Shown piece after piece: positions 32,752 through 48,465 of a stretch of DNA of 64,000 nucleotides. The notes beneath the pieces are model-generated. The model was given only the letters and a program-made list of their open reading frames with translations, had not been told where the DNA came from and searched no databases. The DNA comes from an uncultured Planctomycetaceae bacterium (lineage in GTDB: Bacteria > Planctomycetota > Planctomycetia > Planctomycetales > Planctomycetaceae): the NCBI GenBank assembly GCA_963813715.1, contig CAWFAK010000015.1, forward strand, positions 67,008-131,007. Reading direction: 5' to 3'. The position numbers were made by a program, and so were the translations under genes. How positions within the stretch are numbered: position 1 is the first letter of the stretch; each line of letters starts with the position of its first letter.

Positions 32752-33513
32752 GCGACCACCCGACTCCACGCGTTAACCGTGCAGGTGTCGCGGTCAAGCA
32801 GTTCGTCTCATGCCGTCATTCGGTTTCGCGCGGCAGTGCTCGCCGAGTCGAATCCGGTCCAACCTCCCGTCGGGTCTCGTGTCCCGTCCCATGTCCCGTC
32901 CCAATGTTCCCGGCGCTGAGTCAACTGCTTTGCTGGGTCAACTCCCTAGTGAAACGAAGTGTCCCGACCCACCGGCCAATCTCTTTCCGGCTCGACTTCC
33001 CGGGCCCGACCCCGCGCAGTCATCTCCAGTGAGGGGCCGGTTTCTCCGCGGTTTTCTCGGTGAAACAACGTGTCCCGTCCCGTCGTCCGCGTCCCGTCGA
33101 TGGCTACGAAATGTTTCCGGACCTGCCCTCCCGAGGTCCGTCCTCCAGCCCCGCCGCTGCCGGGGATCTTTTTCTCCCCTATGTGAAATGGATCCCCATC
33201 ACCGCCGGGGATCCTTTTTTGTTCCCGGCGGGGATCTTTTCACCAGCGGTCGAGACTCTGCAGGCCACGGACGCCGCGCAACCGCACCGAGAGAAGCCGA
33301 GCGCAATCCGCGCAAGCGACCGCTCGCGTGCCAAAGCCGCTATCTCCATTGAGCCACAAAAACCCGATTCGGCCAAGATCAGTCTGGCGAAATTCGGGCT
33401 TGGCCGGCCGGGCTGGTTTGGCCGCTGCGGTGGGCGCGTTTCTGTCCCACTGCCCTGGTAGCGTCCGTGTTTGAATCACGGTTTTTTGAGCGATCGGAAC
33501 GGGTAGTTTGAAC

Positions 33514-33774
33514 TTAGGGCAGTGCTCGCTTTATTGCGTCCCCGACGCCGTGCATCGTGCGATCAACGGCAGCAGAGTGGTCCATGCACCAAACGATCGG
33601 CCAATAGATCGCCCCCAGAATCGATTCGGATCGCTGGTTTGAGATGAGTCCCCCGTCAACGCAGTAGGTGAACGCGACCGCCACCGGGAAGATGCTTAGG
33701 ACATAAATAGTGAGCAGCGCCACCGGCCACCACATCCACTTCCACGACTGGCGTCTCTTCGGTTCGTCGCTCAT
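33514..33774 (-). CDS. Cassette: small membrane protein (YxLSxxP family)
   Basis: Starts MSDEPK in the TGACGGCATG motif; IYVLSIFP...IYWP. Confidence 0.8.
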   Translation of the reverse strand: MSDEPKRRQSWKWMWWPVALLTIYVLSIFPVAVAFTYCVDGGLISNQRSESILGAIYWPIVWCMDHSAAVDRTMHGVGDAIKRALP

Positions 33775-33807
33775 GCCGTCACGAGTGGGTGCGGGTTGTG
33801 TTGGTAT

Positions 33808-34062
33808 TCAGTCCGCGATGTTTGACCACAAATGCACGTACCAGTGCAGCGCGTTTCCGAACGATGGAAATTTTTCGCTGAGCCAGAATAGAGGCGCGTA
33901 GGCCGTGAACTGCGGACCGCTAACTATGCCGCTCCCCCACGGACCGAAATGATCGTCGAGCCACCAGACCGGCCCCATCGACAGCGGATAAGCGATCAAG
34001 AGCAACGCCAGCGCCGTCCAACCAATCCACACTCGCGACCGTCTCTTCGGTTCGTCGCTCAT
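33808..34062 (-). CDS. Cassette: small membrane protein (YxLSxxP family)
   Basis: MSDEPK start motif; AYPLSMGP...AYAPLFW. Confidence 0.8.
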   Translation of the reverse strand: MSDEPKRRSRVWIGWTALALLLIAYPLSMGPVWWLDDHFGPWGSGIVSGPQFTAYAPLFWLSEKFPSFGNALHWYVHLWSNIAD

Positions 34063-34100
34063 GCCGTCACCTGGGCGATTGGTACGGGAGTTCACGGGTC

Positions 34101-34464
34101 TCAGAACTTTGTGGCGACAACGATTGCGACAATCCAAACCCCGACAATGACGACGGCGATCGTTGCGAACCGGGCTAGCCGCCCAGTGGAACCGGAGAAA
34201 AGCGACATGCCATCAGCTTTGTTCGGCCGCGCCAACCATGCGACAATCCGCGCCGAGATGATCGCAATGAGCCCCGAGACGCAAAGATAGAGGAAGAAAT
34301 CTCCTGAGCGATCCGGGCGATTTCCGAACGCCCAACTATCGAGTCGGACGAAGCCGTACATCGCGCCAATGAAAACCCAAAAGGACACGAGCACGCCCAG
34401 CACCCAGGCAAAGCCTGACGCTAGCGACATCCGCCACTGATGGTCGCCCCTGGTCTTCGCTCAT
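34101..34464 (-). CDS. Cassette: three-TM protein (frameshift near start)
   Basis: MSEDQG start in motif at 34464; hydrophobic ORF 34101-34430 in another frame. Confidence 0.65.
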
Positions 34465-34624
34465 GCCGTCATTCCGGGGGATTAGCCACGCGAGCTCAGT
34501 GGTGGCAATGCAGCCCACAAAATGTGGATCAAGAATAAGGTCACCGCGCACCAGCTAAAGACGACAGCGAAGCGCGGGTTGTGCCTGCGTTTGAATCACG
34601 GTTTTTCGCTTTTGGCACGGGAGT

Positions 34625-34828
34625 TTAGCGGGGCCGGGGCCAGAATCGCAGGACGCTCCACACGATGAGGCACCCAACGCACGCGCCCGGGATGGCAACG
34701 ATCACTTTCAACCCACTGGCCACAGTAGCGGCGGACGCTCCCGCCCACACTGCGATCCAGGTTCCGGCATCTAATCGCGTCTGGTTAGACGTGTGCTTTT
34801 CTGGATTAGACTTCGGTTCGCGGCTCAT
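34625..34828 (-). CDS. Cassette: small membrane protein
   Basis: MSREPK start motif; stop abuts AACTCCCGTGCC. Confidence 0.75.
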   Translation of the reverse strand: MSREPKSNPEKHTSNQTRLDAGTWIAVWAGASAATVASGLKVIVAIPGACVGCLIVWSVLRFWPRPR

Positions 34829-34857
34829 GCCGTCACCTTAGCGCGTGGCACGGGAGT

Positions 34858-35077
34858 TCAGGGCGCGGCGCTGCGTCCTGCGTAGCGCTGCAACAGTCCG
34901 ATCACGAGGAAGATGAGTCCGGATGTCGTGAGGCCCATTCGTAGCACCTCCACCAGGCTTCCCCGTTCAAGGTGCCAAGCGTAGAGCACCGCCGCGATGG
35001 GCAGGATGATGGCCGCAGTCCTAAGCAGCGCGCGGCCATTCGCGAGGAGATCTTCCGGTTTGCGGTTCGTCGCTCAT
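34858..35077 (-). CDS. Cassette: two-TM protein (frameshift near start)
   Basis: MSDEP start; alternative frame LRTAAIILPIAAVLYAW...GLIFLVIGLLQR ends at TGA in the end motif. Confidence 0.65.
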
Positions 35078-35165
35078 GCCGTCATTCTAGCGGGGGCGGT
35101 ACTCTGGGTTCAGTTTCGGTAGTGCCTGCGGTTGAAACCGGGTTTTGAGCGATTGGCACGGGAGT

Positions 35166-35394
35166 TCAGTGACGCTTGCTGAACGGGTACGCCCAGATCC
35201 GCATGGACTCCCGGAAAAATTCGCAGTTCTCAAAGAGCCAGTCGACCGGCGCGTAGGCCGGACTCGATGGCTTGCCACCATCCCGAATCTTCCGTGAGAC
35301 GCCAAACTGGGGCTTCCGAGAGCGGGTAACAGGCGATGCCGACGATTGCCCAGCGGAGCCACGCCAACAAACGCCGCTTTCGTTCGTCGCTCAT
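35166..35394 (-). CDS. Cassette: YxLSxxP family membrane protein (frameshift)
   Basis: MSDERK...CYPLSEAPV; second frame AYAPVDWL ends at the end motif. Confidence 0.7.
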
Positions 35395-35609
35395 GCCATC
35401 TTCCTGGCGATAAATTCCACCAGTCCGACGACGGATGCCGTCACAGCGACGATCGCAAAGAGGGTTCTCATTTCGAGAAGACCGAAGGCTGTGAGTGCGA
35501 TTGACACAAAGGAAAGAGCGAGGCCCGCGAAGTCTACGTAGATAAGGCGAGCGTCTCGGCGCCTCGCGTCCTGCTTCTGCAACTCGTGATGCTTCGGTTC
35601 GTCGCTCAT
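35391..35609 (-). CDS. Cassette: two-TM protein
   Basis: MSDEPK start; stop overlaps the next ATG (ATGA). Confidence 0.75.
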   Translation of the reverse strand: MSDEPKHHELQKQDARRRDARLIYVDFAGLALSFVSIALTAFGLLEMRTLFAIVAVTASVVGLVEFIARKMA

Positions 35610-35613
35610 GCTG

Positions 35614-35772
35614 TCACTTCAATAGCGCCTTCGCGATTGAGTCGCCCAGCTGCCTCGACACTTCGCGGCCCGCAATTCGCCCGATCAGTAAGCTCGCGCC
35701 GACTTCTGCGATGCACACGGCCACAACCAGTACGATCGTGCCAAGGATGACCTTGCGTCGGTTGAGTCTCAT
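35614..35772 (-). CDS. Cassette: 52-aa membrane peptide
   Basis: MRLNRRKVILGTIVLVVAVC...; stop is the TGA of the next TGACAGCATG motif. Confidence 0.7.
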   Translation of the reverse strand: MRLNRRKVILGTIVLVVAVCIAEVGASLLIGRIAGREVSRQLGDSIAKALLK

Positions 35773-35876
35773 GCCGTCATTCTAGCGGCGGCGGTTGGAG
35801 TGCCAGACACCCAGGGATCATCGCGCAGGGTAGTGGGCGCGTTTGAAAAGCGAAAGTTGGCGATTGGCACGGGAGT

Positions 35877-36258
35877 TCACTTGCCTGTGAGCATCCCAAT
35901 TCCAAAAGCCATCGGGGCCAGCATCGTGATGCCGGCGACGGTTCGTCCCACTGCCACATGGTTTAGGCGACCAAGCATCAGGGCGACGAGAAACACGGCG
36001 AGCGCGGCACACTAACGGCGCCAAAGTGAAAAGGCCCCCTCTTGCTAGGCGTGTCTTCCAGTTACGTCGGGAGGGAACGTCCCGCGAGTACCAGCGGAAT
36101 GTGACGAAGACTGCGATCAACCACACGCCTATTCCAAGCGGCATCGCATCAAGCGGAAAGAGCACGGCGCCCGTGACGGCCGCCACCACAAGGAACGCGA
36201 CGCCGCCCACAACCGAGAGCAGTCCGCTCAACAATCCGGACTTCGGTTCGTCGTTCAT
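35877..36258 (-). CDS. Cassette: multi-TM protein (frameshift)
   Basis: MNDEPK start motif; hydrophobic; TGA in the end motif at 35877. Confidence 0.65.
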
Positions 36259-36278
36259 GCCGTCATGTCCCGTTGGCG

Positions 36279-36515
36279 TCAGAGCCGACCATGTCGTTTC
36301 ATTCGCTTGAGCAAGCTCTTCGTAATCACGTAACCCTCATGGTCTCCAATTACCGTGTCAACGCCACAGTGCGGACAAATCGTGGTCACCTCGCCCGTTT
36401 GTAGCGTGTCATCTTCGCCCATCCAATGCACGATTGCCGTTGGCGGAAAGATAGCGTAGCACGAGTAACACCCGCACAGCTCGCTCCCGCAAATGTCGTC
36501 GGAGTTTCCGCCCAT
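36279..36515 (-). CDS. Cassette: small Cys-rich (Zn-binding) protein
   Basis: CGCYSC...ICPHCGVD; TAGAATGACGGCATG start. Confidence 0.8.
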   Translation of the reverse strand: MGGNSDDICGSELCGCYSCYAIFPPTAIVHWMGEDDTLQTGEVTTICPHCGVDTVIGDHEGYVITKSLLKRMKRHGRL

Positions 36516-36536
36516 GCCGTCATTCTAGCGGCGGAT

Positions 36537-36676
36537 TGAACCGCTCCATAAACGTGCGGAGTGTCGAGTTGTTCCGCTCGACGTGCGACGTGCAGATCGT
36601 CCCAGCTCGCGTATCCCGCTGACATTGATCCGATCAGCCTGCACGAGCGGCGGCGGCGCGTCGCGGCCCGACTCGG
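36537..36676 (-). pseudogene. IS1-family transposase fragment
   Basis: Translates ESGRDAPPPLV...TICTSHVERNNSTLRTFMERF, matching the transposases in this window. Confidence 0.85.
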
Positions 36677-36785
36677 TGTGGCTCCGTTTCAGGAAAGTCA
36701 AAAGACGACACCACCCCCACCACGGTAGTGTCCGTGTTTGACACCGGGTTTTTGGCGATTGGCATGGGAGTTTGGGGGGCGCACG

Positions 36786-37001
36786 TCACAGCGGGAAAAG
36801 CAGGTTCCACACGTGGTCGAGAGGCCGATAAATGGGAATGGCCACGTTAATCAAAACCTTTGAACCGGTCCTGCGAAAGACGCGCATTGCCAGCCGTTCT
36901 ACAGGATCCTCCGAAGCCACGTACACAATAATCATCACGATCAGCCCGATCAGCCAAACCCAGGGCCGCAACCACGAGTGCTTATTCGGTTCGTCGCTCA
37001 T
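36786..37001 (-). CDS. Cassette: YxLSxxP-like membrane protein
   Basis: MSDEPN start; VYVASEDPV...IYRPL. Confidence 0.8.
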   Translation of the reverse strand: MSDEPNKHSWLRPWVWLIGLIVMIIVYVASEDPVERLAMRVFRRTGSKVLINVAIPIYRPLDHVWNLLFPL

Positions 37002-37010
37002 GCCGTCATG

Positions 37011-37190
37011 TCAGCGGTACAGCAAGATTGCAGCTGCCGCCCTCAGGATAGAGACCGCGCCCAGAGCGAGGATAAAACAGGTGAACGTGCCGGCCCGCTT
37101 CTTGGACAGCAATAGCCTGATGGGAATGGTCGCCAGCCCAATAAGGGCAAGCAAGATTCCAATCTTCATCGCGAGCCAATAAACGCTCAT
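37011..37190 (-). CDS. Cassette: two-TM protein
   Basis: MSVYWLAMK start within GAATGACGGCATG. Confidence 0.75.
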   Translation of the reverse strand: MSVYWLAMKIGILLALIGLATIPIRLLLSKKRAGTFTCFILALGAVSILRAAAAILLYR

Positions 37191-37194
37191 GCCG

Positions 37195-37293
37195 TCATTC
37201 TGGCTGTGAGTACCGGACAAAGACGACCGCCAGAATCGCCAAGCCGATCAGGGCGAGCACGAGCGCCTCGCGGCGATTGGGTAGTCGGATCAT
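37195..37293 (-). CDS. Cassette: 32-aa membrane peptide
   Basis: MIRLPNRREALVLALIGLAILAVVFVRYSQPE; stop is the TGA of the next motif. Confidence 0.65.
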   Translation of the reverse strand: MIRLPNRREALVLALIGLAILAVVFVRYSQPE

Positions 37294-37302
37294 GCCGTCA
37301 TT

Positions 37303-37579
37303 CTAGCGGGTCTCGAAGCGCGCCCAAGCGGCAAACGGTCCGAGCGACGGCGGAGTCCGTGGGGCTCGTCCAACTCCGCTTTGACACGAAAGGTAATGGA
37401 GCGTGATCGAAAGGTCGCGGGCCTTGCTGTAAGCCCTGTCAGCAGCCTGGAGCAGTTCGTCCGTGTGCGGAAAGCCCCGTGCGTCCATCCGCCGTCTCAC
37501 GCGCGCAGATATTGCACGTAGGCGCGAGCCGCGCGCCGATGGCGGCGACTTGGGCTGGCGTCAGGTCGTGGGAATCCAT
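37303..37579 (-). CDS. Cassette: small soluble hypothetical protein (frameshift)
   Basis: MDSHDLTPAQ start after a variant motif (TAAAAT); continues RRMDARGFP...LHYLSC in another frame. Confidence 0.55.
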
Positions 37580-37692
37580 GCCCGCAATTTTAGCGGCGGA
37601 TCCATTTGCGGGTGATTTCGAATTCAGGCACTACCCCCCCCGCAGGTAGTGGGGTCGTATCCTGGACGAAAAACGGCGATTGGCACGGGAGT

Positions 37693-38004
37693 TCAACGCA
37701 TCCAGCCGACAATCGCCCTGACTCCGGCGATGAGCACGAAAAGCACAACGAACCCGGCGATGCCGCATCCAATCAAACCCACTAGATACCGGAATCGGCT
37801 TGGCTTCGGCGCGCCAACCCGGCGCTCGATTACCACTAAGGCATTGAGGTCCTCAATGGCGCTCGTGCAACCCGCAGCAGCGAGCATGAGATCCCGCAGG
37901 CGCTGAAAGGACTCACGATTGCAAATCAGCATCAACTCGCCGCGCGTCTGCCCATGGCAAATCTCAATGCCGCCGGCGCTCCCTGCATCCGGTTCGTCGC
38001 TCAT
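37693..38004 (-). CDS. Cassette: protein with C-terminal TM
   Basis: MSDEPD start; stop in the end motif. Confidence 0.8.
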   Translation of the reverse strand: MSDEPDAGSAGGIEICHGQTRGELMLICNRESFQRLRDLMLAAAGCTSAIEDLNALVVIERRVGAPKPSRFRYLVGLIGCGIAGFVVLFVLIAGVRAIVGWMR

Positions 38005-38033
38005 GCCGTCACCTCAGCGATTGGCACGGGAGT

Positions 38034-38366
38034 TCAATCAAGCGATTCGAGCCATTGCGAGAAGATCTCCGCCCTAGACTCCGCTGATGGCGACTCAATT
38101 CCCTGAGCCTTCATCGCCTCGACCAGTTGCACGAGTAGTCGCCAATAACAGCGATGATCATCCTTGCGCTCAAACTGTCCAACGTCCCACACGGCACCGG
38201 CACCACCCCACATCGCGCCCGACGCCAATGCCGGCCCAATAGCCGTGCTGTCCCATTCCGCAATCGTCGCGACTGCGGCAACGTAATCGGCTTGCGGATG
38301 GTCGTTTCTGCGTAGGATCGCTTCGAGACGTCGCAGAATGGAAATCAGTGGCAGCCCGTCGCTCAT
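38034..38366 (-). CDS. Cassette: soluble hypothetical protein
   Basis: MSDG start after TAGAAT; WGGAGAVWD motif; stop in the end motif. Confidence 0.8.
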   Translation of the reverse strand: MSDGLPLISILRRLEAILRRNDHPQADYVAAVATIAEWDSTAIGPALASGAMWGGAGAVWDVGQFERKDDHRCYWRLLVQLVEAMKAQGIESPSAESRAEIFSQWLESLD

Positions 38367-38566
38367 GCCGTCATTCTAGCGGCGGATTCGGCGGGAATGA
38401 GACCGCCGCATTCAACGGCTGATCGATCGGCTGCAACGGGATGAGTAGTTTCACCAAGCGGGTGGGGTCGCATCGCGGTTATTTTTCAGTACCCCACTAC
38501 CCCGAAAGTGCGCCCCGCAGGTAGTGGGCGCGCATCCTGGACGAAAGTCGGCGATTGGCATGGGAG

Positions 38567-38917
38567 TTACGCGGCGCTTCGCACAGCGGGAGACAATATC
38601 CCAAGTATCCAGAACACCGCGAGTGCGGCAATCAACCACACGATTGGGTGCTTGATCGCCTCAAACAGAAGGGTGCGGCACTCGGAGAATGTAGCACGCC
38701 CGCGCCAATGACGGGCGAAATAGAAGCACCACAAGGCTGTGGCCGGCACCAGCACCAGAATCATTTGCCAAGGATCCTGGTGGGGCCAGCGGTAACGAAC
38801 CGGCTGCGGGGCGTCTATCCGTTCAATGAGAAATGCCGCCGTTGCGATGCAACAGAGTGCCAGACCCGCAGCTCCGATCAGCCCGCGAAGCCAGTTGTTG
38901 CCCCGTTCGTCGCTCAT
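38567..38917 (-). CDS. Cassette: three-TM protein
   Basis: MSDER start after TAGAAT; TAA in the end motif. Confidence 0.8.
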   Translation of the reverse strand: MSDERGNNWLRGLIGAAGLALCCIATAAFLIERIDAPQPVRYRWPHQDPWQMILVLVPATALWCFYFARHWRGRATFSECRTLLFEAIKHPIVWLIAALAVFWILGILSPAVRSAA

Positions 38918-38941
38918 GCCGTCATTCTAGCGGCGGACCGC

Positions 38942-39520
38942 TCAAATGAACTCGCGATACTTGCGCAGTTCGGCGGCCGTTTGAGGTAGTCCGTGTTTTT
39001 CGAGCGTGTCCGCGTATTCGTCTGCTGTTTTCGCGGGGCGCGTCAGGTTCGCTCGGCAATTCTTCGCGGCCGAAAGTGCGGCGGGGCGACACAGCTCAAG
39101 CTGACATACCGTGAAATCGTCTGTGTCGATCACTTCTACGCCATAGGTGGCGACGTATTCCGTCGGAAAATCCCTAGTGTTAAACGTGACGATGGCATCG
39201 GCATTCGACACAATCGCCGCCGCCAACACGTGTCTATCGTCCTGGTCTGGGAGATCAAGCGAGCCAACGAGTCGCTCGTGGCCCGTGACGATACAATCCG
39301 GGAAGCTTTCGTTCATCCGAGCCTTGAGGCGTTCGATCTTGCTCGGCTCAATATCTGGACGATTTTCGCGTAAGGCGCGAGTCCACTCGTCGTGTATTTG
39401 ATCGGTCCATCGAGGGCGAAAAAGATCTTCCGTCGCCATCCACAGAACAAGATCACGGACAGGAGCAGAGTAGAGAACGCAGGCGTCTAAAACGACTGTG
39501 AAACGGTTGGCGAAATTCAC
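38942..39520 (-). CDS. PIN-domain protein (putative toxin)
   Basis: VVLDACVLY, LPDQDDRHVLAAA, IVTFN.RDF. Confidence 0.9.
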   Translation of the reverse strand: MNFANRFTVVLDACVLYSAPVRDLVLWMATEDLFRPRWTDQIHDEWTRALRENRPDIEPSKIERLKARMNESFPDCIVTGHERLVGSLDLPDQDDRHVLAAAIVSNADAIVTFNTRDFPTEYVATYGVEVIDTDDFTVCQLELCRPAALSAAKNCRANLTRPAKTADEYADTLEKHGLPQTAAELRKYREFI

Positions 39521-39523
39521 TCA

Positions 39524-40000
39524 TTAGTACTCCAAACCCATTTCCTCCGATTCGGCCGTGATCCGTTTTAGCGTTTCTCGGCGCTCCGAATCGGCGCGGT
39601 GCTTGTGGGCCATCAAGTCCTTGAACAGGATTCTTCGATGGGACCCGACTTTACGATGTGGGATTTTTCCGCTCTCGATTAGGCCGATTAAGAATGGCCT
39701 GCTGACATTGAGGATGTCGGCCGCCTGCTGCGTTGTCAGCTCGGCGTGAATTGGAATAAATGTTACTGCGTTACCGCGAGCCATTTCCGACAGGATGTCA
39801 TTCAGGAGCAAGAAGGCGGACATCGGAATTTCTACGAATTCTTCATGTCCGCCGTCCGGCTCGAATCGAACCCCTACGTTGCGCGGCTGCACACGTGGGC
39901 TCCGAAAACGAGCCAACTTTTTTACCGATTCCTTCGCGAGCCTCTTGTCGTCATCAGACGGAAGGACGGCCTCGCGCGACTTGAGCACTCCGGCGCTCAT
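39524..40000 (-). CDS. Excisionase-type HTH protein (putative antitoxin)
   Basis: ELTTQQAADILNVSRPFLI.L...G.IP..KVG.HRRI; directly upstream of the PIN gene. Confidence 0.9.
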   Translation of the reverse strand: MSAGVLKSREAVLPSDDDKRLAKESVKKLARFRSPRVQPRNVGVRFEPDGGHEEFVEIPMSAFLLLNDILSEMARGNAVTFIPIHAELTTQQAADILNVSRPFLIGLIESGKIPHRKVGSHRRILFKDLMAHKHRADSERRETLKRITAESEEMGLEY

Positions 40001-40228
40001 TGCTAGGCCTCCGTAAGCACAAAAATGTTTTTCACCCTTGAAGCCAATCATCGACGTCGTACAATAATACTCCTTAATCGAAGCAAACGAAGCAAGCGAA
40101 ATAATCGCAATTTCGATAAACTCGCACAAATTGTTTATCCACAATGGTTTGTGCGCTAACCATTCCGGTCGATCCATGACCAGAAGTCCGACACGTCAGT
40201 GGTGGTGCCGCTCCCCCAATTCATGCCG

Positions 40229-40320
40229 GGAGAACGGCCCGCGTTTGGCGGCGCAGCAGCCTTATAACCTGCCGGAGGGGTCCGCGTACGCGCGGACGGG
40301 ATCGTAACCCCCTATCTCCG
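40229..40320. ncRNA. Conserved structured motif, copy 1 (also 43183-43281 and 47016-47108)
   Basis: Three copies with conserved blocks and a variable but base-paired internal hairpin. Confidence 0.5.
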
Positions 40321-40530
40321 CTTTTGGTGAGCAGCTTCGGCTAGCAGCCCACGGATAGCCTCCGTAACGGCAGCCGAGCGATTCCAGCCCCGTTTCCCCG
40401 CGAGCACGTCCAGACGGTCCACAAGCCCCGAGGGCACGCTAGCGGAGATGTTTACGGTCGGCCCCTCTTCGGGGTGAGCTGTCTTTCGCCCGGCTCCCTC
40501 ACGCTTGCCGCCATGCTGGCTTTTGGCCAT
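40312..40530 (-). CDS. Ribbon-helix-helix (CopG-like) regulator
   Basis: GGKREGAGRK...ISASVP...NRSAAVTEAI. Confidence 0.8.
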   Translation of the reverse strand: MAKSQHGGKREGAGRKTAHPEEGPTVNISASVPSGLVDRLDVLAGKRGWNRSAAVTEAIRGLLAEAAHQKRR

Positions 40531-40739
40531 TTCCCTGCCTCTTGAAAAACTCATACGAATCAAGTTGACATTCCCATTTGATTTTGTATGATAAATCAAG
40601 TCAGTGGTCAAGGCAAAGAAAAACCCCGGAAGGACGCCAATCCAACCGGGGCGAGAACAGACATCCGGGCGAACCCAGAATGCCAGTCCAGACAACTGCA
40701 TTCTACCACGGTTCGCCGCAGTCGAAAGAGGCGGTTCCC

Positions 40740-41669
40740 GTGGCCAACTTCATCAGTCGAGACAAACAGATTCAGGTTCTGCGGCTCTTGTCGGAAGGAA
40801 ACTCGATTCGTTCGGTCGTGCGGCTGACTGGAATCCACAAGAGCACGATCACGCGGCTCGTCGTGCGGTTCGGGAACGACTGCCGCCAGTACCTCGACTT
40901 CGCGATGGCCAATCTGAACCTCGACCACGTTCAGATTGACGAGATTTGGACGTTCTGCGGGATGAAAGAGGGACACGCCAAAAAGCGGCACCTCGATACG
41001 TCAGTCATCGGCGACCAGTACCTCTTCACGGCCCTCGACACCGAAACCAAGCTGTTGGTCACGTTCGCGATCGGCAAGCGCACTGCCGCCACGACAGAGG
41101 CGTTTATCGAGGATCTGTCGAAGCGGCTCTATCGCGGCCCCGAGGCGATCGGCGATGACCGCCCGCAGTTGAGCACCGATGGCTTCACGCCCTACGGGCC
41201 GGCGATCCGCAACCACTTCCACGGCACGGTCAAGCACGGCGTATTGATAAAGCAGTACCGCAACCCGGAAGTGGGCCGCTACGCTCCGCCGGACCTGACC
41301 GGAACCGAACGGTTAAACATCAACGGGATACGCGACCTGTCCACGATATGCACCAGCCACGTCGAGCGGAACAACTTGACGATCCGCACATTTATGCGAC
41401 GATTCACTCGGCTCGCGTTGGGCTTCTCAAAGAAGGTCGAGAACTTGGCCGCGGCCACGGCGATCCACGTTGCGGTCTACAATTTCTGCCGCATCCACTC
41501 TACGATTCGTTGCACCCCCGCAATGGCCGCCGGTGTCATCGATCGGCTGTGGGGCATGGGCGACCTGTTCGACGCGGTGACGGACCACGCGGCTCAGCTC
41601 AAAGCGAAGGCCCGTCGTGACCGCCGAATTCAGCGGCTGATCGACAGGCTGCGGAAAGAGGGACGCTAG
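40740..41669 (+). CDS. IS1-family DDE transposase
   Basis: N-terminal HTH (EGNSIRS), IDEIW, STDG, TSHVERNNLTIR, FSKK. Confidence 0.9.
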   Translation: MANFISRDKQIQVLRLLSEGNSIRSVVRLTGIHKSTITRLVVRFGNDCRQYLDFAMANLNLDHVQIDEIWTFCGMKEGHAKKRHLDTSVIGDQYLFTALDTETKLLVTFAIGKRTAATTEAFIEDLSKRLYRGPEAIGDDRPQLSTDGFTPYGPAIRNHFHGTVKHGVLIKQYRNPEVGRYAPPDLTGTERLNINGIRDLSTICTSHVERNNLTIRTFMRRFTRLALGFSKKVENLAAATAIHVAVYNFCRIHSTIRCTPAMAAGVIDRLWGMGDLFDAVTDHAAQLKAKARRDRRIQRLIDRLRKEGR

Positions 41670-41767
41670 GGCGGGCGCGTTTCGTGGTTATTTCAAACTG
41701 TCCCACTACCCGCCCCGCAGGTAGTGGGGTCGTTTGAAAAGCGAAAGTTGGCGGTTGGCACGGGAGT

Positions 41768-42007
41768 TCAAGTGAAACGTGACATCTGTGCCACGTACCA
41801 ATCAAAGAATGACCGCAGTGTGGTGGACTTGCTACACGCCCATTGAAGAGGGTCGTAGACCGTGTTTATGGTCTCGGTGCTGATACAGCCGCCGCTCCAA
41901 AGCAAATACGCCGGCCCGAGGCTCAAGAAATACAGGGCTGGAAGCGGCACGAGCGCCCAGCCGATCCAGCCCCACCACCGCCGTCGTTTCTTCGGTTCGT
42001 CGCTCAT
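41768..42007 (-). CDS. Cassette: YxLSxGP family membrane protein
   Basis: MSDEPK start after TAGAAT; LYFLSLGP...VYDPLQW; stop in the end motif. Confidence 0.85.
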   Translation of the reverse strand: MSDEPKKRRRWWGWIGWALVPLPALYFLSLGPAYLLWSGGCISTETINTVYDPLQWACSKSTTLRSFFDWYVAQMSRFT

Positions 42008-42277
42008 GCCGTCATTCTAGCGGCGCAGTTGAAGCCGACATTTAATGTTGCCACGATAAATGTGATTCGGGGCGTCTCTTTGGCTTGTGCGTAAGCTGTG
42101 TGGCCGTAGCATATTGAGGAAAGTGGGCAAATTTTCGTTCCAATCAGCCCGTCCCGTTCGTTTTATCTAATGGCGGTCGGGAGTGAGTGAAACAGCCGCC
42201 AAGGAGAACTGGGAGTGCTGGAAACGAACCAGGGATGTTTCGTTCCACGGGGTAAAAAACAGGGCACGGGTGCATCA

Positions 42278-42466
42278 ATGAACACGCGCGAACTGCTGGC
42301 CGCCTATGCAGATTTGCTCAACGCCCACGGAGTCGATTCCGAAGAGGCAAAGGAGTTCTTGGAAGCTAACCGCTTCCAGGAAGAATTCTACGACCTCGCC
42401 GTACTGTCGAAGAAGCTCAAAGCTGCGCTGACCTCGCCGGTGTGCGAGCAAGCCTGCAACAACTGA
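42278..42466 (+). CDS. Small hypothetical protein
   Basis: 62-aa helical ORF upstream of the sigma factor. Confidence 0.5.
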   Translation: MNTRELLAAYADLLNAHGVDSEEAKEFLEANRFQEEFYDLAVLSKKLKAALTSPVCEQACNN

Positions 42467-42570
42467 TTTTTGCGGTGGATTTCTAGCAGGGATGTTCGGC
42501 GCGCGACGGATTTAATGCGCGCCGTGTTGGCCAAGGAGGGCATCGTGGCAATGGACAAAGGGACGTGCGA

Positions 42571-43173
42571 ATGTCCGACACTGCCCCCCTTAAGCGATGG
42601 TCCGATGATCGAATCCTCCAAGAAGCCAGCCAGGGCAACGAAAGGGCGTTTGAGGTTTTCTGCGATCGCTCGTTGCCGTCGCTTTATCGCTACGTTCGGA
42701 ACCAATGCCGCAAGCGCGGCATTCCGGAAGACTTAGCGCAGGACTTCTGTCACGAAGCCGTGATCCGTGCGATCACGTGCATTCGCGGATGTGCAGCCGG
42801 CGAGATTCGCCCCTTTCCAAGCGTGTCCCAGGCTTGGTTAAAAAGGATCGCCGTCAATGTGCTAAAAGACTGGGGGCGCCGGGAGCGCCGGGTCGTTTTC
42901 GTCAAAGAACTTGAGATTGAATCGCGAACCGACGTTGCGCCTGAAGACGCTCTCGAAAGGGAGGAAATACTCAAGTTTTTTACTTGGCTTCCGGAACGCG
43001 AGCGAGACATGCTCGAACTCGTGTTCGTCAACGAGAAAACAATTGCCGAAGCTGGTGCCCAGCTAAACATCAGCCACGCCAACTCCTATAAGGTGTTTCA
43101 GCGAGCCTTGGAATTACTTCGGGATCTCCTCGCTGAACACGGCCATATGCCGCAACGGTCTGAGACGGATTGA
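42571..43173 (+). CDS. ECF-type sigma-70 factor (passenger gene)
   Basis: AQDFCHEA, AWLKRIAVN...D..RR, LPERERDML...TIAEAG. Confidence 0.8.
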   Translation: MSDTAPLKRWSDDRILQEASQGNERAFEVFCDRSLPSLYRYVRNQCRKRGIPEDLAQDFCHEAVIRAITCIRGCAAGEIRPFPSVSQAWLKRIAVNVLKDWGRRERRVVFVKELEIESRTDVAPEDALEREEILKFFTWLPERERDMLELVFVNEKTIAEAGAQLNISHANSYKVFQRALELLRDLLAEHGHMPQRSETD

Positions 43174-43289
43174 GTCCGTCCCGGAGAGCGGTCCGCGTTT
43201 TGGGGGGCGCAGCAGACTTATACCCTGCCGGAGGAGTCGGACCACGGAAGGTTCCGATGGGATCGTAACCCCCGCTCTCCGCCTTTTCT

Positions 43290-43469
43290 TTAGCGCGCCT
43301 TTCGCGCCGCTGCCTTCAGCAGCACGTCCCTAGCCCAGGTTGACGTATTCCCTTGCGCGGCTGAATCCAAGGCTTCGCGTTCGCCTTCTGTGAGGCGGAT
43401 GCGCAGCTCGGAATCCCGCCTCTCTTCGTCCGTCTTCGGCGGACGGCCCCGCTCTCGCTTGTCTTCCAT
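43290..43469 (-). CDS. Ribbon-helix-helix regulator (59 aa)
   Basis: RGRPPK...LRIRLTEGEREALDSAA...STWARDVLL; same position as the other RHH genes. Confidence 0.75.
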   Translation of the reverse strand: MEDKRERGRPPKTDEERRDSELRIRLTEGEREALDSAAQGNTSTWARDVLLKAAARKAR

Positions 43470-43662
43470 GAATTTATCGTAGCAACAATATTTTTCGGTT
43501 TCAAGGCTTGAACCACTGTTTATTGTTGCTACAATAAATGTCGTGATGAAAACCCCGTCGTGCTGATAACACGGCGGGGCGAACTACAACCAGGCGTTTC
43601 CGCTGATTGCAGTCTAGGCAACTTCATTTTAGCGGATTCGTCGCAGACGAGTGAGCGAATCC

Positions 43663-44592
43663 GTGGCCAATTTTCTCAGCCGCGACAGACAGATCCAGGT
43701 TCTGCGCTTGCTATCAGAGGGCAATTCGATCCGCTCGACAATGCGCCTCACAGGCATCGAGAAGAAAACCATCACGCGGATCGTGGTCAGGTTCGGCAAC
43801 CAGTGTCGGCAGTACCTCGATTTCGCGCTGTCGAACCTCAACCTCGACCACGTTCAAATCGACGAAATTTGGACGTTCTGCGGAATGAAAGAAGGGCGCG
43901 CCAAGCGGCGGAAGCTGGACACGTCGGTCATTGGCGACCAGTACCTCTTCACCGCTCTCGACACCGAAACCAAGTTGCTGGTCACGTTCGCTGTAGGCAA
44001 GCGTACGGCGGCCACGACTGAGGCGTTTATCGAGGATCTGTCCAAGCGGCTCTACCGCAGCCCCGAGGCAATCGGCGACTATCGGCCGCAGTTGAGCACC
44101 GACGGGTTTACTCCCTACGGGCCGGCGATCCGCAATCACTTCCACGGGACGGTCAAGCACGGCGTTTTGATAAAGCAGTACGTTAATCCGGATGTCGGCC
44201 GCTACGCGCCTCCGGCGCTGGTCGGGACCGAGCGATTGAACGTCAACGGCATACGCGACCTGAGCACGATATGCACATCGCACGTTGAGCGGAACAATCT
44301 GACGATCCGCACGTTTATGAAGCGGTTTACTCGGCTGGCCCTGGGCTTCTCAAAGAAGCAGGGCAACCTTGCCGCCGCGACCGCGATCCACGTTGCGGTT
44401 TACAACTTCTGCCGCATTCACAGCACGATCCGATGCACACCCGCGATGGCTGCGGGAGTGATTGATCGCTTGTGGGGCATGGGCGATCTCTATGACGCTG
44501 TGACGCGGCACGCGGCAGAGGTCACCGCCAAGCTGAGCCGGGATGCCAAGATCGCGAAGCTGATCGAGAAATTGAAGAGGAGCGAACCCTAA
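43663..44592 (+). CDS. IS1-family DDE transposase
   Basis: Close paralog of 40740-41669 with the same catalytic motifs. Confidence 0.9.
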   Translation: MANFLSRDRQIQVLRLLSEGNSIRSTMRLTGIEKKTITRIVVRFGNQCRQYLDFALSNLNLDHVQIDEIWTFCGMKEGRAKRRKLDTSVIGDQYLFTALDTETKLLVTFAVGKRTAATTEAFIEDLSKRLYRSPEAIGDYRPQLSTDGFTPYGPAIRNHFHGTVKHGVLIKQYVNPDVGRYAPPALVGTERLNVNGIRDLSTICTSHVERNNLTIRTFMKRFTRLALGFSKKQGNLAAATAIHVAVYNFCRIHSTIRCTPAMAAGVIDRLWGMGDLYDAVTRHAAEVTAKLSRDAKIAKLIEKLKRSEP

Positions 44593-45119
44593 TTGCAGGC
44601 TCGGGCGACATCATTCATAAACGCAGCCGCTTGGATTTGGATATTTTCCCTTGGCGTCTCATTGCTCGGCGGCCACGCGGAAATGTCGACCTGTGGCCTC
44701 ATGCCAGCAAGTCGAAAAAGCTCGTTGAAGAGATCGCCCGACAGCCGGACGGTCAGCTCCGGACTGGTTGTCCGAAAGCGGCCATCTGGATTATCCATCG
44801 CCCTGAGCGCCCCAGTACGATCGTTCTCGTGCATTCGCCCTTGGAACAGTTCGTATCGGAGTTTGAGTTCGGCACAGATGCGAAGGCGCTGGTTGATATC
44901 ACGCGCACGTTGCTCGTCAGCTTGTCGCCGGTTGTCTTCAGCGCGCTGTTCTTGTTTTTCTTGCTTGGCCTTGTGTTCCTTCCAAATGTCCCACGGAATC
45001 GGGGACAAGAACCCAGCGATCAAGAGTCCCAGGAATGCGACGATAGCAATCTTGTCAGGCATGGATCGCGCCTGAAACCAAGCCCAAAGTCTTGCTAACC
45101 GAACGACGAGCCGACCCAC
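44589..45119 (-). CDS. Membrane-anchored hypothetical protein
   Basis: N-terminal TM followed by coiled coil. Confidence 0.55.
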   Translation of the reverse strand: MGRLVVRLARLWAWFQARSMPDKIAIVAFLGLLIAGFLSPIPWDIWKEHKAKQEKQEQRAEDNRRQADEQRARDINQRLRICAELKLRYELFQGRMHENDRTGALRAMDNPDGRFRTTSPELTVRLSGDLFNELFRLAGMRPQVDISAWPPSNETPRENIQIQAAAFMNDVARACN

Positions 45120-45131
45120 GTTTAATCTCGC

Positions 45132-45867
45132 CTACTGGAACGGGAAGCATGGGATTTGCTTCCACTCCGTTTCGCCTTTGTGCCAGACGAACATTTTGCC
45201 GTTGTCCTCGTCGTAGGCAATAACCGAGTCGGCATTTCCGCTGAATTTCAGTCTGTCCTTCCCCGGGGGGCAATTGTTTCGACATGGGGTACATCCACCC
45301 TGCTCGGACGAAGGGCGGGGAGTACGCGAGTCCGGACCTGGGACTCGATGTGGTGGAGAAGGCTCTGGGTTCGCGTTTCCGGTTGTCCCCCCTGGGCAGA
45401 ACTCTTTCCCGTCCTTGATCACGGCGAGGGAATACCCTGCGCGTTCTCTTTGAGCCGGATTGTCTTGGCGTCCGCCAAGCTGATGTTCTGGGTGAGCCCC
45501 CGGCGATCGATTGGAACAAGTTTGTAGTCGTGCCATTCTCCGTCGCAGCAACACTCGCGACACGGAGCCTGGGGAATTGGAGCCACGCAGGAGGAGCAGC
45601 CGGAGCCTGAAAGGCTGGTGCAGGCCATGCCTGAGCCGGTGCAACGGATGGCATGCCTCCGCCGTACCATGGCCCGGCTGCGGGCTGTTGCACGCAACTG
45701 AGTTGCGCCCCTACATATTGAGGTGTGCAAATTGGTCCGCACGTCCCGTAGCACGGTGGCGTGCAGCAGCATCCGCATGGTGGGCAGCATCGCGGGCAGT
45801 CGTAAAAGCCGCAGCATCCCGTCGCCCCCGCAACGAGGGCGGGGACTAATAACGCGATCCATCGCAT
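45132..45867 (-). CDS. Cys-rich putative lipoprotein and/or downstream hypothetical protein (boundaries uncertain)
   Basis: MRWIALLVPALVAGATGCC...CPRCCPPCGCCC; overlapping frame ends at 45132. Confidence 0.4.
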
Positions 45868-46147
45868 TGGGGAAGGCCTGTTTTGTGAGGCGGAGCGCGA
45901 GACAGGCGAGATGGGGCGGACAGTCCCTCTTCGGCAATCTGTAACGCCAGCCTTGAACGGGATCGCCGAACGTTGCTGACTTGTTAAAGTTTGATTGAAG
46001 TCCCATTGGTGTTTTCACCCCCTGGGTGGGGTCGTTTGGTTTTATTTCAAAGTACCCCACTACGGCGGTGTCTCCGTTTGAAAACTGAATTGTGCTGATT
46101 GGCACGGGTTTTCATTCGGGACGCTGCCCCTAGTGGGGGTAGTGGAG

Positions 46148-46417
46148 ATGACTAATGAAGAAATCGGGCGCTGGATCGACGATCCGGCCGCACGTGAAGT
46201 GATCCTGAAATTTGTCCGCAATGTGGCGGGCGAACCGAACCTCGACTGGAGTGGTCTTGTCGAGGCTTTGGAGCATCCCGACGAATACGATTACGGTCGC
46301 GAGCTATCCGCCCCTATTCGCGCTCTTTGGTCGCGCATGGACACGGGCGAGAGGGTGGTCGCCATGATTATTTGTGAGCAGCTTGCGAATTGGCGGCGTC
46401 TGACTGCGCTTTCTTGA
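46148..46417 (+). CDS. Hypothetical protein
   Basis: GGAG RBS directly before ATG; 89 aa. Confidence 0.5.
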   Translation: MTNEEIGRWIDDPAAREVILKFVRNVAGEPNLDWSGLVEALEHPDEYDYGRELSAPIRALWSRMDTGERVVAMIICEQLANWRRLTALS

Positions 46418-46991
46418 TGGCCGCCATCACCCGCGCACCTGAAGCAGCCGACATGATTTTCGTGTAGGCGTTGCACAGCTCTCCTGACAGCAAATAAGCG
46501 GCGCACATGAACAGATTTCTCGCGGGAGTGCGCCTCTTAGTCATTCGCGCCCAAACTCTCACCGCCTTCGGAAACCGTTCTGAATTCTTTTTCTGCTCCG
46601 GAGACAGTAGGTCGAAAATCGAGTGTGCGCGTTCCATGTTCAAGGTTACGGAGCCTGGATGGTGCGCGAAATGGTTTCGCAGCTCATTTAGCTTGACCAT
46701 TGCTTGGAAGGTATGGCTGTCGATCGCGAGCAAAACCCGAGCCACAACCAGCTTCACGTAAAAGGATTGGAGCGGTGGCTGCGGCCCATCTTTTAACAGC
46801 CACGCAATTAGCGAATCTGTCTCACCAGATTCCGCATGGAGCTTAGCCCAGAGCACGTCCCCTAGCAGCCCATCACAATATCCGTGCACCGCCAGCACGC
46901 ATCCGCGATCGGATTCGTCGAGTCCGATCGTCTCCCAGAAGCGCCACCCGCCAATGTCGGGCTCGGTGAGCTTCTTGCGTCTTTTTGACAT
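46368..46991 (-). CDS. MtlR/HEPN-like protein
   Basis: ESDRGCVL...PLQSFYVK...LNELRNHFAH (RxxxxH). Confidence 0.65.
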   Translation of the reverse strand: MSKRRKKLTEPDIGGWRFWETIGLDESDRGCVLAVHGYCDGLLGDVLWAKLHAESGETDSLIAWLLKDGPQPPLQSFYVKLVVARVLLAIDSHTFQAMVKLNELRNHFAHHPGSVTLNMERAHSIFDLLSPEQKKNSERFPKAVRVWARMTKRRTPARNLFMCAAYLLSGELCNAYTKIMSAASGARVMAAIKKAQSDAANSQAAHK

Positions 46992-47099
46992 CGGGACTCT
47001 CTATACGCGCGCTTCGGAGAACGGCCCGCGCCTTGGCGGCGCAGCAGCTTTATACACTGCCGGAGGGGTCCGTGCGCTCACGGATGGGATCGTAACCCC

Positions 47100-47319
47100 C
47101 TATCTCCGCTTTTGGCGTCCAGCGCTTGCCAGAAGCCCACGGATGGCCTCCGTGACGGCCTCTGAGCGGTTCCACCCGCGCCTTGTCGGCCCGCGCGTCT
47201 AGACGCTCCATGAGGCTTTCCGGCACAGTAGCACCGATGTTTATCGTCGGACCCTCTGGATTAATTGGCTTGCGCCCGGCCCCCTCCCGTTTGCCTCCGT
47301 GCCCTGTCGTTGGGGTCAT
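47100..47319 (-). CDS. Ribbon-helix-helix regulator (frameshift)
   Basis: Paralog of 40312-40530 (GGKREGAGRK...NRSEAVTEAIRGLLA). Confidence 0.75.
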
Positions 47320-47356: not shown

Positions 47357-47385
47357 TTGCCACGCACATGTTGAATAAATATAAT
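47357..47385 (+). promoter_or_regulatory. Sigma-70 promoter for transposase 3, overlapped by palindromic operators
   Basis: TTGCCA-17 bp-TATAAT; two GTTGAA...TTCAAC palindromes. Confidence 0.7.
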
Positions 47386-47530
47386 GTATTCAACGACGTC
47401 CGACAAGGGCAACAAAAAACCCCGCCGGTGCTGAAACACAAGCGGGGCGACAAAACATCCAGGCGAACCTGAATGCCGTCTAGGCAACTGCATTCTACCA
47501 CGGTTCGCCGCAGTCGAAAGAGGCGGGACC

Positions 47531-48465
47531 GTGGCGAATGTTTTGAAGCGGGACAAGCAGATTCAGGTTCTCAGGCTGCTGGTCGAAGGTAACTCGATTC
47601 GCTCGACCGAACGGATTACCGGGATCAGCCGCAACGCGATCATGCGACTCTTGGTGCGGTTCGGAACCGCTTGCCGCGAATTCCTAGACCTGAACCTCAG
47701 CAACCTGCATCTGGAGCACGTCGAGATCGACGAGATTTGGACGTTCGTTCGCAAGAAGCAGCGGAAGCTGCACGGGTTCGAGATCATCGATCCAGAAATC
47801 GGCGACATTTACTTGTTCACGGCGCTCGACCAATCCACGAAGTTGCTGGCGTCGTTCGCGATCGGGAAGCGGAACAACCAGACGACGCAAGCGCTGATCC
47901 GCGACCTGGAGAGCCGGATGGTCCGCCGGCCGGACCACAGCGGGGCCGAACGCCCGCAACTTTCGACCGATGGATTCAACACCTACCCCGGTGCGATTGC
48001 GGAGCGGTTCGGGTCGTCCGTGAAGCATGGGGTTTTGATAAAGCAGTACCGCAATCCAGAGTCGGGCCGATAGCGCCCCCGGATCTGATCGGCACCGAGC
48101 GGATCGCGGTCCAGAACATCACCGATGTGACCACGATATGCACGTCGCACGTCGAGCGGAACAACCTGACGATCCGCACGTTTATGAAACGGTTCACGCG
48201 CCTCTCGATGGGCTTCAGCAAGAAGCTAACGAACCTCGCCGCGGCGGCCGCGCTCCAGATCGCCCACTACAACTTCTGCTGGCGGCTGCGTCAGCCGGGG
48301 AAGAGCGGACAGCGGACCCCGACGCCCGCGATGATGGCGGGGCTGGTCGAGACGCTGTGGACGATCGAGGATCTGTACGATGCCGTGATGAAACAGCAGG
48401 CCGACAAGAAGCACGCGGCCCGCGTTGCAAAACTTATTGACCGTCTGCGACGAGAAAAGCTATAA
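47531..48465 (+). CDS. IS1-family DDE transposase (frameshift near 48070)
   Basis: IDEIW and STDG in the first frame; TSHVERNNLTIR in the second. Confidence 0.88.

Follow-up and report, generated by a model that had tools for sequence, protein, structure and literature searches.

A predicted tRNA-like gene with anticodon UAU stands upstream of IS1-family transposases that carry rare ATA codons close to their catalytic residue

Genes whose expression is gated by a rare codon, and mobile elements whose copy number is restrained by an RNA of their own, are both familiar: bldA and leuX act as rare-codon tRNA switches, while RNA-OUT of IS10 is an antisense brake. The case presented here departs from these in that a tRNA-like gene lies inside the element itself, and that its body and its anticodon appear to disagree. 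It concerns a stretch of 64,000 nucleotides from an uncultured Planctomycetaceae bacterium (contig CAWFAK010000015.1 of assembly GCA_963813715.1), hereafter the window, where three copies of a structured motif stand upstream of three IS1-family transposase genes that, in the two intact cases, concentrate the codon matching the anticodon of the RNA. Coordinates given without a prefix are positions within the window; L-numbers designate loci, G000 is the genome of the window, and C7 and C8 are contigs.

The closest described RNAs belong to the published class allo-tRNA(UAU) (PMC5389517), and the comparison made here covers 120 of its 186 UAU rows. The window RNA has in common with that class a 12-bp acceptor branch, a long variable arm, the discriminator base G73, mismatches in the stems and a CTTATAA-type anticodon loop, and some of its relatives (L002, L163) also share the GGAGGGCG...CGCCCTCCG ends. 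The architecture differs. In the published UAU rows an 8/4 form of about 84 nt brings five stems to one junction, with a tRNA-Sec-like D arm made of a long stem and a tetraloop; the window RNA, by contrast, is a 9/3 form of 92-99 nt with an extra helix, and its D-like hairpin has a 5-bp stem and a loop of 5-6 nt containing GG. Published 9/3 types carry other anticodons, whereas the 9/3 RNA of the window has UAU and occurs in Planctomycetia. No form like it was present among the 120 rows compared, and six sequence blocks typical of the window RNA were absent from the supplement table, although rows 61-126 or figure S5 may hold a closer form (PMC5389517). In the parts of that paper covered here, one allo-tRNA copy overlaps a transposon-related open reading frame (ORF), it is stated that most copies may not be used in translation, allo-tRNAs with leucine anticodons insert serine and kill E. 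coli, and no link is drawn to transposase codons; some rows come from metatranscriptomes, so the class is transcribed. Neither a tRNA-based control of IS1-family elements nor a paper linking such tRNAs to transposase codons was found in the literature searched, whose scope left out most subscription papers. The RNA class is already known; what the present analysis adds is the extra helix, the joint switch of codon and anticodon, and the spread over three transposase families.

The three copies, all on the plus strand, occupy 40229-40320, 43183-43281 and 47016-47108, exactly where an earlier note on this DNA, made from sequence alone, had placed a conserved motif, and each shows the conserved blocks described there, together with the hairpin whose sequence varies while its pairing is kept. 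Every one of these spans begins precisely at tRNA position 1 and ends with the discriminator base, G73. In copy 1, the acceptor pairs 40229-37 with 40311-19 (G73 being at 40320), the extra helix pairs 40238-40 with 40277-79, and the D-like hairpin (40241-54), the anticodon loop (40261-67, with TAT at 40263-65), the variable arm (40280-97) and the T arm (40298-310) complete the molecule. Copy 2 has a perfect 9-bp acceptor, while copies 1 and 3 have two mismatches each; the anticodon TAT is at 43219-21 in copy 2 and at 47051-53 in copy 3. Read on the plus strand, the fold consists of the 9-bp acceptor, a 3-bp extra helix, the D-like hairpin, an anticodon arm with a loop of pattern YTTATAM, the long variable arm and a 3-bp T-stem. 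The T-arm that the earlier note read on the minus strand is the reverse complement of the plus-strand T-loop, which is ATCGTAA in the window copies and the canonical TTCGATT in many relatives; since these relatives carry the canonical GGGTTCGATTCCC on the plus strand, that strand, also the strand of the transposase, is the meaningful one.

Taken singly, the copies fold no better than shuffles on either strand (z -1.4 to +0.2), so that structural support comes from covariation. In a MAFFT alignment of 49 copies (48 of them distinct), 88% of 1,484 cells are paired, against 43-55% in slid controls, with two-sided changes at 26 of the 31 pairs; the acceptor is paired in 91% and the T-stem in 99% of cells. 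RNAalifold, unaided, recovered five of the six helices, missing the poorly aligned variable arm. Covariation support for the extra helix is modest: it is paired in 96.5% of cells, with one two-sided change for each of its three pairs. The stems vary while the anticodon stays almost fixed (TAT in 46 rows, TAC in one, TGC in one, one unclear); G73 is found in all 49 rows, base 38 is variable, and 14 of 15 further strong matches again have UAU.

Annotation tools were of little help. ARAGORN and the Rfam model RF00005 left the window copies uncalled, these not being scored as tRNAs of the 7/5 type, and the Rfam scan suggested by the earlier note returned no match either at gathering threshold or at E-value level; ARAGORN does call some relatives (L260, L323, L329) tRNA-Ile(tat). 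A simple terminator was also discarded, as none of 13 terminator-like sites coincides with a motif copy. The proposal of a structured RNA with a multi-way junction, encoded by an insertion sequence, is upheld, while its presentation as an unknown RNA has to be revised: as judged from its sequence, each copy is a tRNA-like gene, a structural variant of the allo-tRNA(UAU) class though not a listed member of it. As for its origin, the three weak matches of our covariance model that were read are all ordinary tRNA-Ser(UGA) genes, which suggests descent of the RNA from tRNA-Ser. The tRNA-Ser(UGA) genes of Planctomycetia share with the window RNA G73, the long arm, the GG of the D-loop and the T-loop, and in two of the three weak matches the acceptor ends as well. 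They are the best ordinary matches of the model, yet they differ by their 7/5 fold, serine anticodon and housekeeping nature, and their scores do not exceed 46 bits, whereas the family of the window RNA scores 58-100.

The RNA travels with the transposase. Each module is made of the tRNA-like gene (plus strand), a small gene of the ribbon-helix-helix (RHH) type (minus strand), divergent promoters, a leader and the IS1-family transposase gene (plus strand). A profile built from the three copies detected a fourth on C8 of G000 (E 9.9e-10; next match E 0.19). In G000, each of the four near-full-length genes for IS1-family transposases is preceded, on its own strand, by a copy. At C8 no RHH gene separates the RNA from the transposase leader, and it is for this reason that we tie the RNA to the transposase and not, as had been proposed, to the RHH genes. 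Building a covariance model and searching near homologous transposases, as the earlier note had advised, did reveal a family with covarying stems. The first model, derived from eight copies and applied to 199 transposase loci, reached 52 bits or more in 44 matches (some matches are redundant, and many loci have little upstream DNA); all 44 are upstream of the transposase and share its orientation, most of them some 370-520 bases ahead of the start. The transposase is present in 41 of the 301 genomes of the class. In the 40 others than G000, a second model found 20 matches of 58-100 bits, seven of them training sequences, distributed over 17 genomes, and 14 of these 20 stand just upstream of a listed IS1-family transposase. 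Among the 260 transposase-negative genomes, the 120 that were searched contained no strong match (best 45 bits), and a phylum-wide sample of 150 other genomes contained no match. A loose motif scan was abandoned as yielding mostly chance matches, with 4 strong ones among 100 tested of its 120 loci.

The transposases themselves hold the codon that a UAU anticodon would read. Transposases 1 (40740..41669) and 2 (43663..44592), both on the plus strand, are of the IS1 DDE type (DDE_Tnp_IS1, PF03400; E 3.9e-9 and 3.9e-8); ATA makes up 3 of 310 and 3 of 309 of their codons, against a host background of 4 ATA in about 8,950 codons, counted over the 17 of 33 long ORFs that were judged to be real host genes. 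Neither dnaG nor rpoD has any. In transposase 1 the three codons are at 41247, 41328 and 41346 (amino acids 170, 197 and 203), in transposase 2 at the same three sites, clustering within roughly 40 codons before the invariant catalytic Glu209; transposase 3 (47531..48465, plus strand) is broken by a frameshift near 48070. Between amino acids 160 and 215, all 11 transposases that have a UAU RNA in cis contain ATA, against 7 of 19 in which no such RNA was detected, its absence having been checked (the codon count of one control locus, L250, being read off the alignment). In four distant transposases (35-38% identity) accompanied by the RNA, 2 of 2, 1 of 1, 4 of 4 and 3 of 4 ATA codons fall at the same sites. 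At amino acid 203, ATA interchanges with ATC and ATT, which identifies isoleucine as the working residue. We considered, and rejected, recoding of ATA to serine as the working residue of IS1 enzymes, as the sites align with isoleucine and other hydrophobic residues.

Where the anticodon is UAC, the codon changes with it. In L176 the same RNA body has the anticodon UAC, and the transposase has no ATA, all four of its GTA codons falling within 15 codons of the 160-215 stretch; in L234 and L281, where the tRNAs are Ser-like with UAC, GTA occupies a column where UAU elements have ATA. The same body has been seen with UAU, UAC or UGC, and neighbouring clades have Ser- or Leu-like bodies with foreign anticodons; the assignment of bodies to Ser, Leu or Arg follows the usual identity rules. 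The anticodons observed would read AUA, GUA, GCA, UAA and UAG, all codons that are rare in GC-rich hosts.

The association reaches beyond IS1. At L011 and L344 the RNA and an RHH-like gene precede an IS4-type transposase with ATA at one shared site; that of L011 matches PF01609 and is preceded by the same leader. A pattern for the published 8/4 class retrieved 28 loci from Acidobacteria. Most are not beside an IS1 motif, which is downstream in 2 of the 28, whereas an IS1595 motif lies within 2 kb, in either orientation, in 9 of the 28; both counts come from exact patterns and are lower bounds. L391, an 8/4 type with the IS1 motif and the one of these two that was read, has six ATA codons, of which four fall on the hot spots or close to them. 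Five of the nine IS1595 loci were read and have 3-6 ATA at shared sites (Pfam was run for three, and the host background there is one gene), while one IS1595 gene near which no UAU tRNA was found has none. At two other 8/4 loci that were read, no transposase lies directly downstream. We lean, by somewhat better than an even chance, to the view that IS1, IS1595 and IS4 elements of GC-rich soil bacteria share a private codon switch, in which a tRNA of the element is matched to rare codons near the catalytic residue and sets activity through mis-decoding or gated decoding, anticodon and codons changing together from UAU/ATA to UAC/GTA.

Control of transposase translation through the matched codon is the class of explanation that the data support best, and we hold it to be fairly likely; the RNA probably sets how much working transposase is made. 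Of the roles that the earlier note had left open, regulation is the one to which this evidence points, in the form of translation control, and not targeting or processing. As to direction, our tentative preference, somewhat short of an even chance, is for a brake: the UAU gene, apparently derived from tRNA-Ser and a fixed part of IS1-family cargo transposons, would lower the amount of active transposase. Once transcribed and processed, the RNA, charged with serine or bound unproductively, would read the AUA codons of the transposase, placing a wrong residue at isoleucine positions or stalling the ribosome. More copies of the element would then mean less active transposase, at little cost for a GC-rich host that hardly uses AUA. 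A brake is favoured because serine features persist whatever the anticodon, because body and anticodon are mismatched in neighbouring elements, because the host has TilS, and because isoleucine is the working residue; the published allo-tRNAs with leucine anticodons, which insert serine with lethal effect in E. coli, also speak for it (PMC5389517).

The opposite direction is possible, though we find it less probable: the ATA cluster would hold translation low, and the tRNA of the element, charged with isoleucine or with a tolerated small residue, would supply AUA decoding and switch transposition on, a kind of supply for which mobile elements with rare-codon tRNAs offer precedent. The match of codon and anticodon fits such a positive role equally well, as do the small A73 UAU types devoid of serine features; at one IS1595 ATA site, the unlinked homologue (a single sequence) has alanine, and the failed anticodon swap to CUA reported for the published class is what charging dependent on the anticodon would give (PMC5389517, in the part covered). 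Against it, the rules commonly accepted do not give isoleucine identity to a tRNA in which G73 is invariant, the variable arm is long and base 38 varies; the same body with UAC would require a change of synthetase, Ser-like UAC tRNAs would not deliver valine, and TilS is already there in the host. Mis-decoding or stalling is thus preferred over supply of a rare tRNA.

Several observations weigh against the brake, or against codon control at large. The seven transposases in which ATA occurs although no RNA was detected in cis suggest that the codons may act as a brake of their own; the loci are kin rather than independent, and codons were counted by eye. Six of the 20 strong matches are not beside a listed IS1 transposase: of the five examined, one lies ahead of an IS4-type transposase and another ahead of an integrase-like ORF, and for three the DNA examined contains no transposase. 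Nor are the motif-only matches L060, L011 and L062 beside one: the first of these adjoins miaA, another an IS4 transposase, and in the remaining case the 580 bases examined contain no transposase. L203, with anticodon UGC, keeps hot-spot ATA and has four GCA codons, mostly elsewhere and in no cluster. A further UAU type, smaller at about 67-70 nt, with A73 and lacking the long arm, occurs at the same position in L254:2018-2085, L262:2174-2240, L137:976-1046 and L167:2018-2084, and fits isoleucine better than serine. None of five transposases next to ochre- or amber-type tRNAs has a matching internal stop. Finally, six allo-tRNA(UAU) swapped to CUA gave no suppression with serine or alanine, being inactive or lethal in E. 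coli (PMC5389517, in the part covered).

A third account, rather unlikely in our opinion, sees the RNA as a passenger: a toxin, defence RNA or decoy that would mistranslate or jam codons ending in A in AT-rich invaders, or would titrate anticodon nucleases. The ATA cluster of the transposase would then be a separate rare-codon pause. That the anticodons read codons rare in GC-rich hosts would suit it, as would the copies without transposase, the PIN gene of module 1, the weak nuclease-like ORF with eight ATA that adjoins the RNA in L406, and the toxin-antitoxin neighbours noted for the published class (PMC5389517, in the part covered). However, a transposase should avoid, not concentrate, a codon corrupted by its passenger, and the GTA switch of the UAC elements ties codon to anticodon. 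The ORF in question (L406:2115-2678) has 187 codons, eight of them ATA, matches the nuclease family PBECR2 weakly, and lies right after an allo-tRNA(UAU) of the published type. The PIN gene belongs to a PIN_3 and HTH_17 pair at 38942-40000 (minus strand), a toxin-antitoxin-like cargo of element 1.

Within the modules, the CopG-type RHH gene of module 1 (40312..40530, minus strand) is convergent with the RNA, its stop codon overlapping the 3' acceptor strand, and is alone in matching Pfam RHH_1. The small RHH-like gene of module 2 (43290..43469, minus strand) has no Pfam match and is unrelated to the first (E 3.3), as had been stated; that of module 3 (47050..47316, minus strand) resembles the first but is frameshifted relative to it, so that its frame enters the RNA. 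Divergent sigma-70-like promoters, plus for the transposase and minus for the RHH gene, are predicted from consensus matches at 40565..40616, with equivalents at 43476-43535 and 47357-47406. The transposase leader is conserved at 40616-40736, 43545-43660 and 47410-47530, with a hairpin and a T run on the minus strand and a CATTCTAGCGG-type block; it may hold an antisense RNA or an additional promoter. Upstream of copy 2, a small ORF and an ECF-sigma-like gene (42281-43173, plus strand) end 10 bases before it and may be co-transcribed with it.

Sequences resembling element ends enclose modules 1 and 2 together with cargo genes. The left-end-like sequence (GGTAGTGGG...) of element 1 is at 38520..38532 (plus strand), that of element 2 at 41720-41732; its pattern has five matches, a number reached in 1 of 100 shuffles. 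The right-end-like sequence is at 41688..41710 (minus strand) for element 1, at 46042-46064 for element 2, and again at 38479-38501, three matches where shuffles gave none. The elements share with IS1-family insertion sequences carrying passengers the DDE_Tnp_IS1 match and end-like sequences of GGTAGTG type, which we take to be the end motif of the family, but differ by a single-ORF transposase, a divergent RHH gene, the tRNA-like gene and the cargo. If the transposase or the RHH protein used the motif as a DNA site or a guide RNA, or if it were what remains of an integration target serving one of them, this would account for its fixed distance upstream of the transposase and its convergence with the RHH gene. 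Such a role is nevertheless very improbable. The motif lies in the interior of the element, separated by 1.5-1.7 kb from the left-end-like sites, and its stems covary, G-U pairs included, around an anticodon that does not change; moreover, the module is also found ahead of an IS4 transposase, which is unrelated, and the RHH gene is absent at C8. No variable guide segment was seen either, only the variable-arm loop varying, within its hairpin (no comparison with target DNA was made for a guide-type segment).

Other features deserve mention. Between sequences resembling insertion-sequence ends, a minus-strand array of small genes starting MSDE... (33500-42020), with a repeated CCGCTAGAATGACGGCATG start of leaderless appearance and a repeated TTGGCACGGGAGTT, looks like a cassette array. 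Leu-like tRNAs whose anticodon is UUA (ochre) or CUA (amber) stand upstream of related transposases at L188:523-614, L218:931-1018, L236:874-962, L306:2155-2242 and L290:1806-1888; read-through of an internal stop by them was considered but found no support, as no matching stop exists in the five, and the transposase of L236 terminates in TAA. Further tRNA-like genes with apparently mismatched body and anticodon, some in tandem, precede transposases at L137:888-1046, L278:26-101, L283:2270-2346, L280:2103-2190, L312:2175-2247 and L152:2684-2761. At L060:2478-3924 a copy of the family precedes the tRNA-modification gene miaA, and the stretch examined contains no transposase. Elsewhere in G000, L131:1597-1668 (C8:418596-418667) is a tRNA of nearly canonical form that has the anticodon UAU and A73 but lacks a long arm, lying between housekeeping-like genes with no IS1 transposase nearby; C7:914718-919431 is an array of 32 tRNA genes, and ARAGORN calls a tRNA with anticodon TTA at C8:182792-182863.

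Rfam and ARAGORN, standard tools of annotation, missed this class of tRNA gene here. With fixed ATA codons in the adjacent transposase, and with natural variants where the anticodon has switched, the question of codon control becomes directly testable. Were the proposed control to hold true, the most abundant orphan class of allo-tRNAs would have a function, and transposons would be controlled in a way not described before, in which a mobile element regulates itself by having a sense codon reinterpreted locally.

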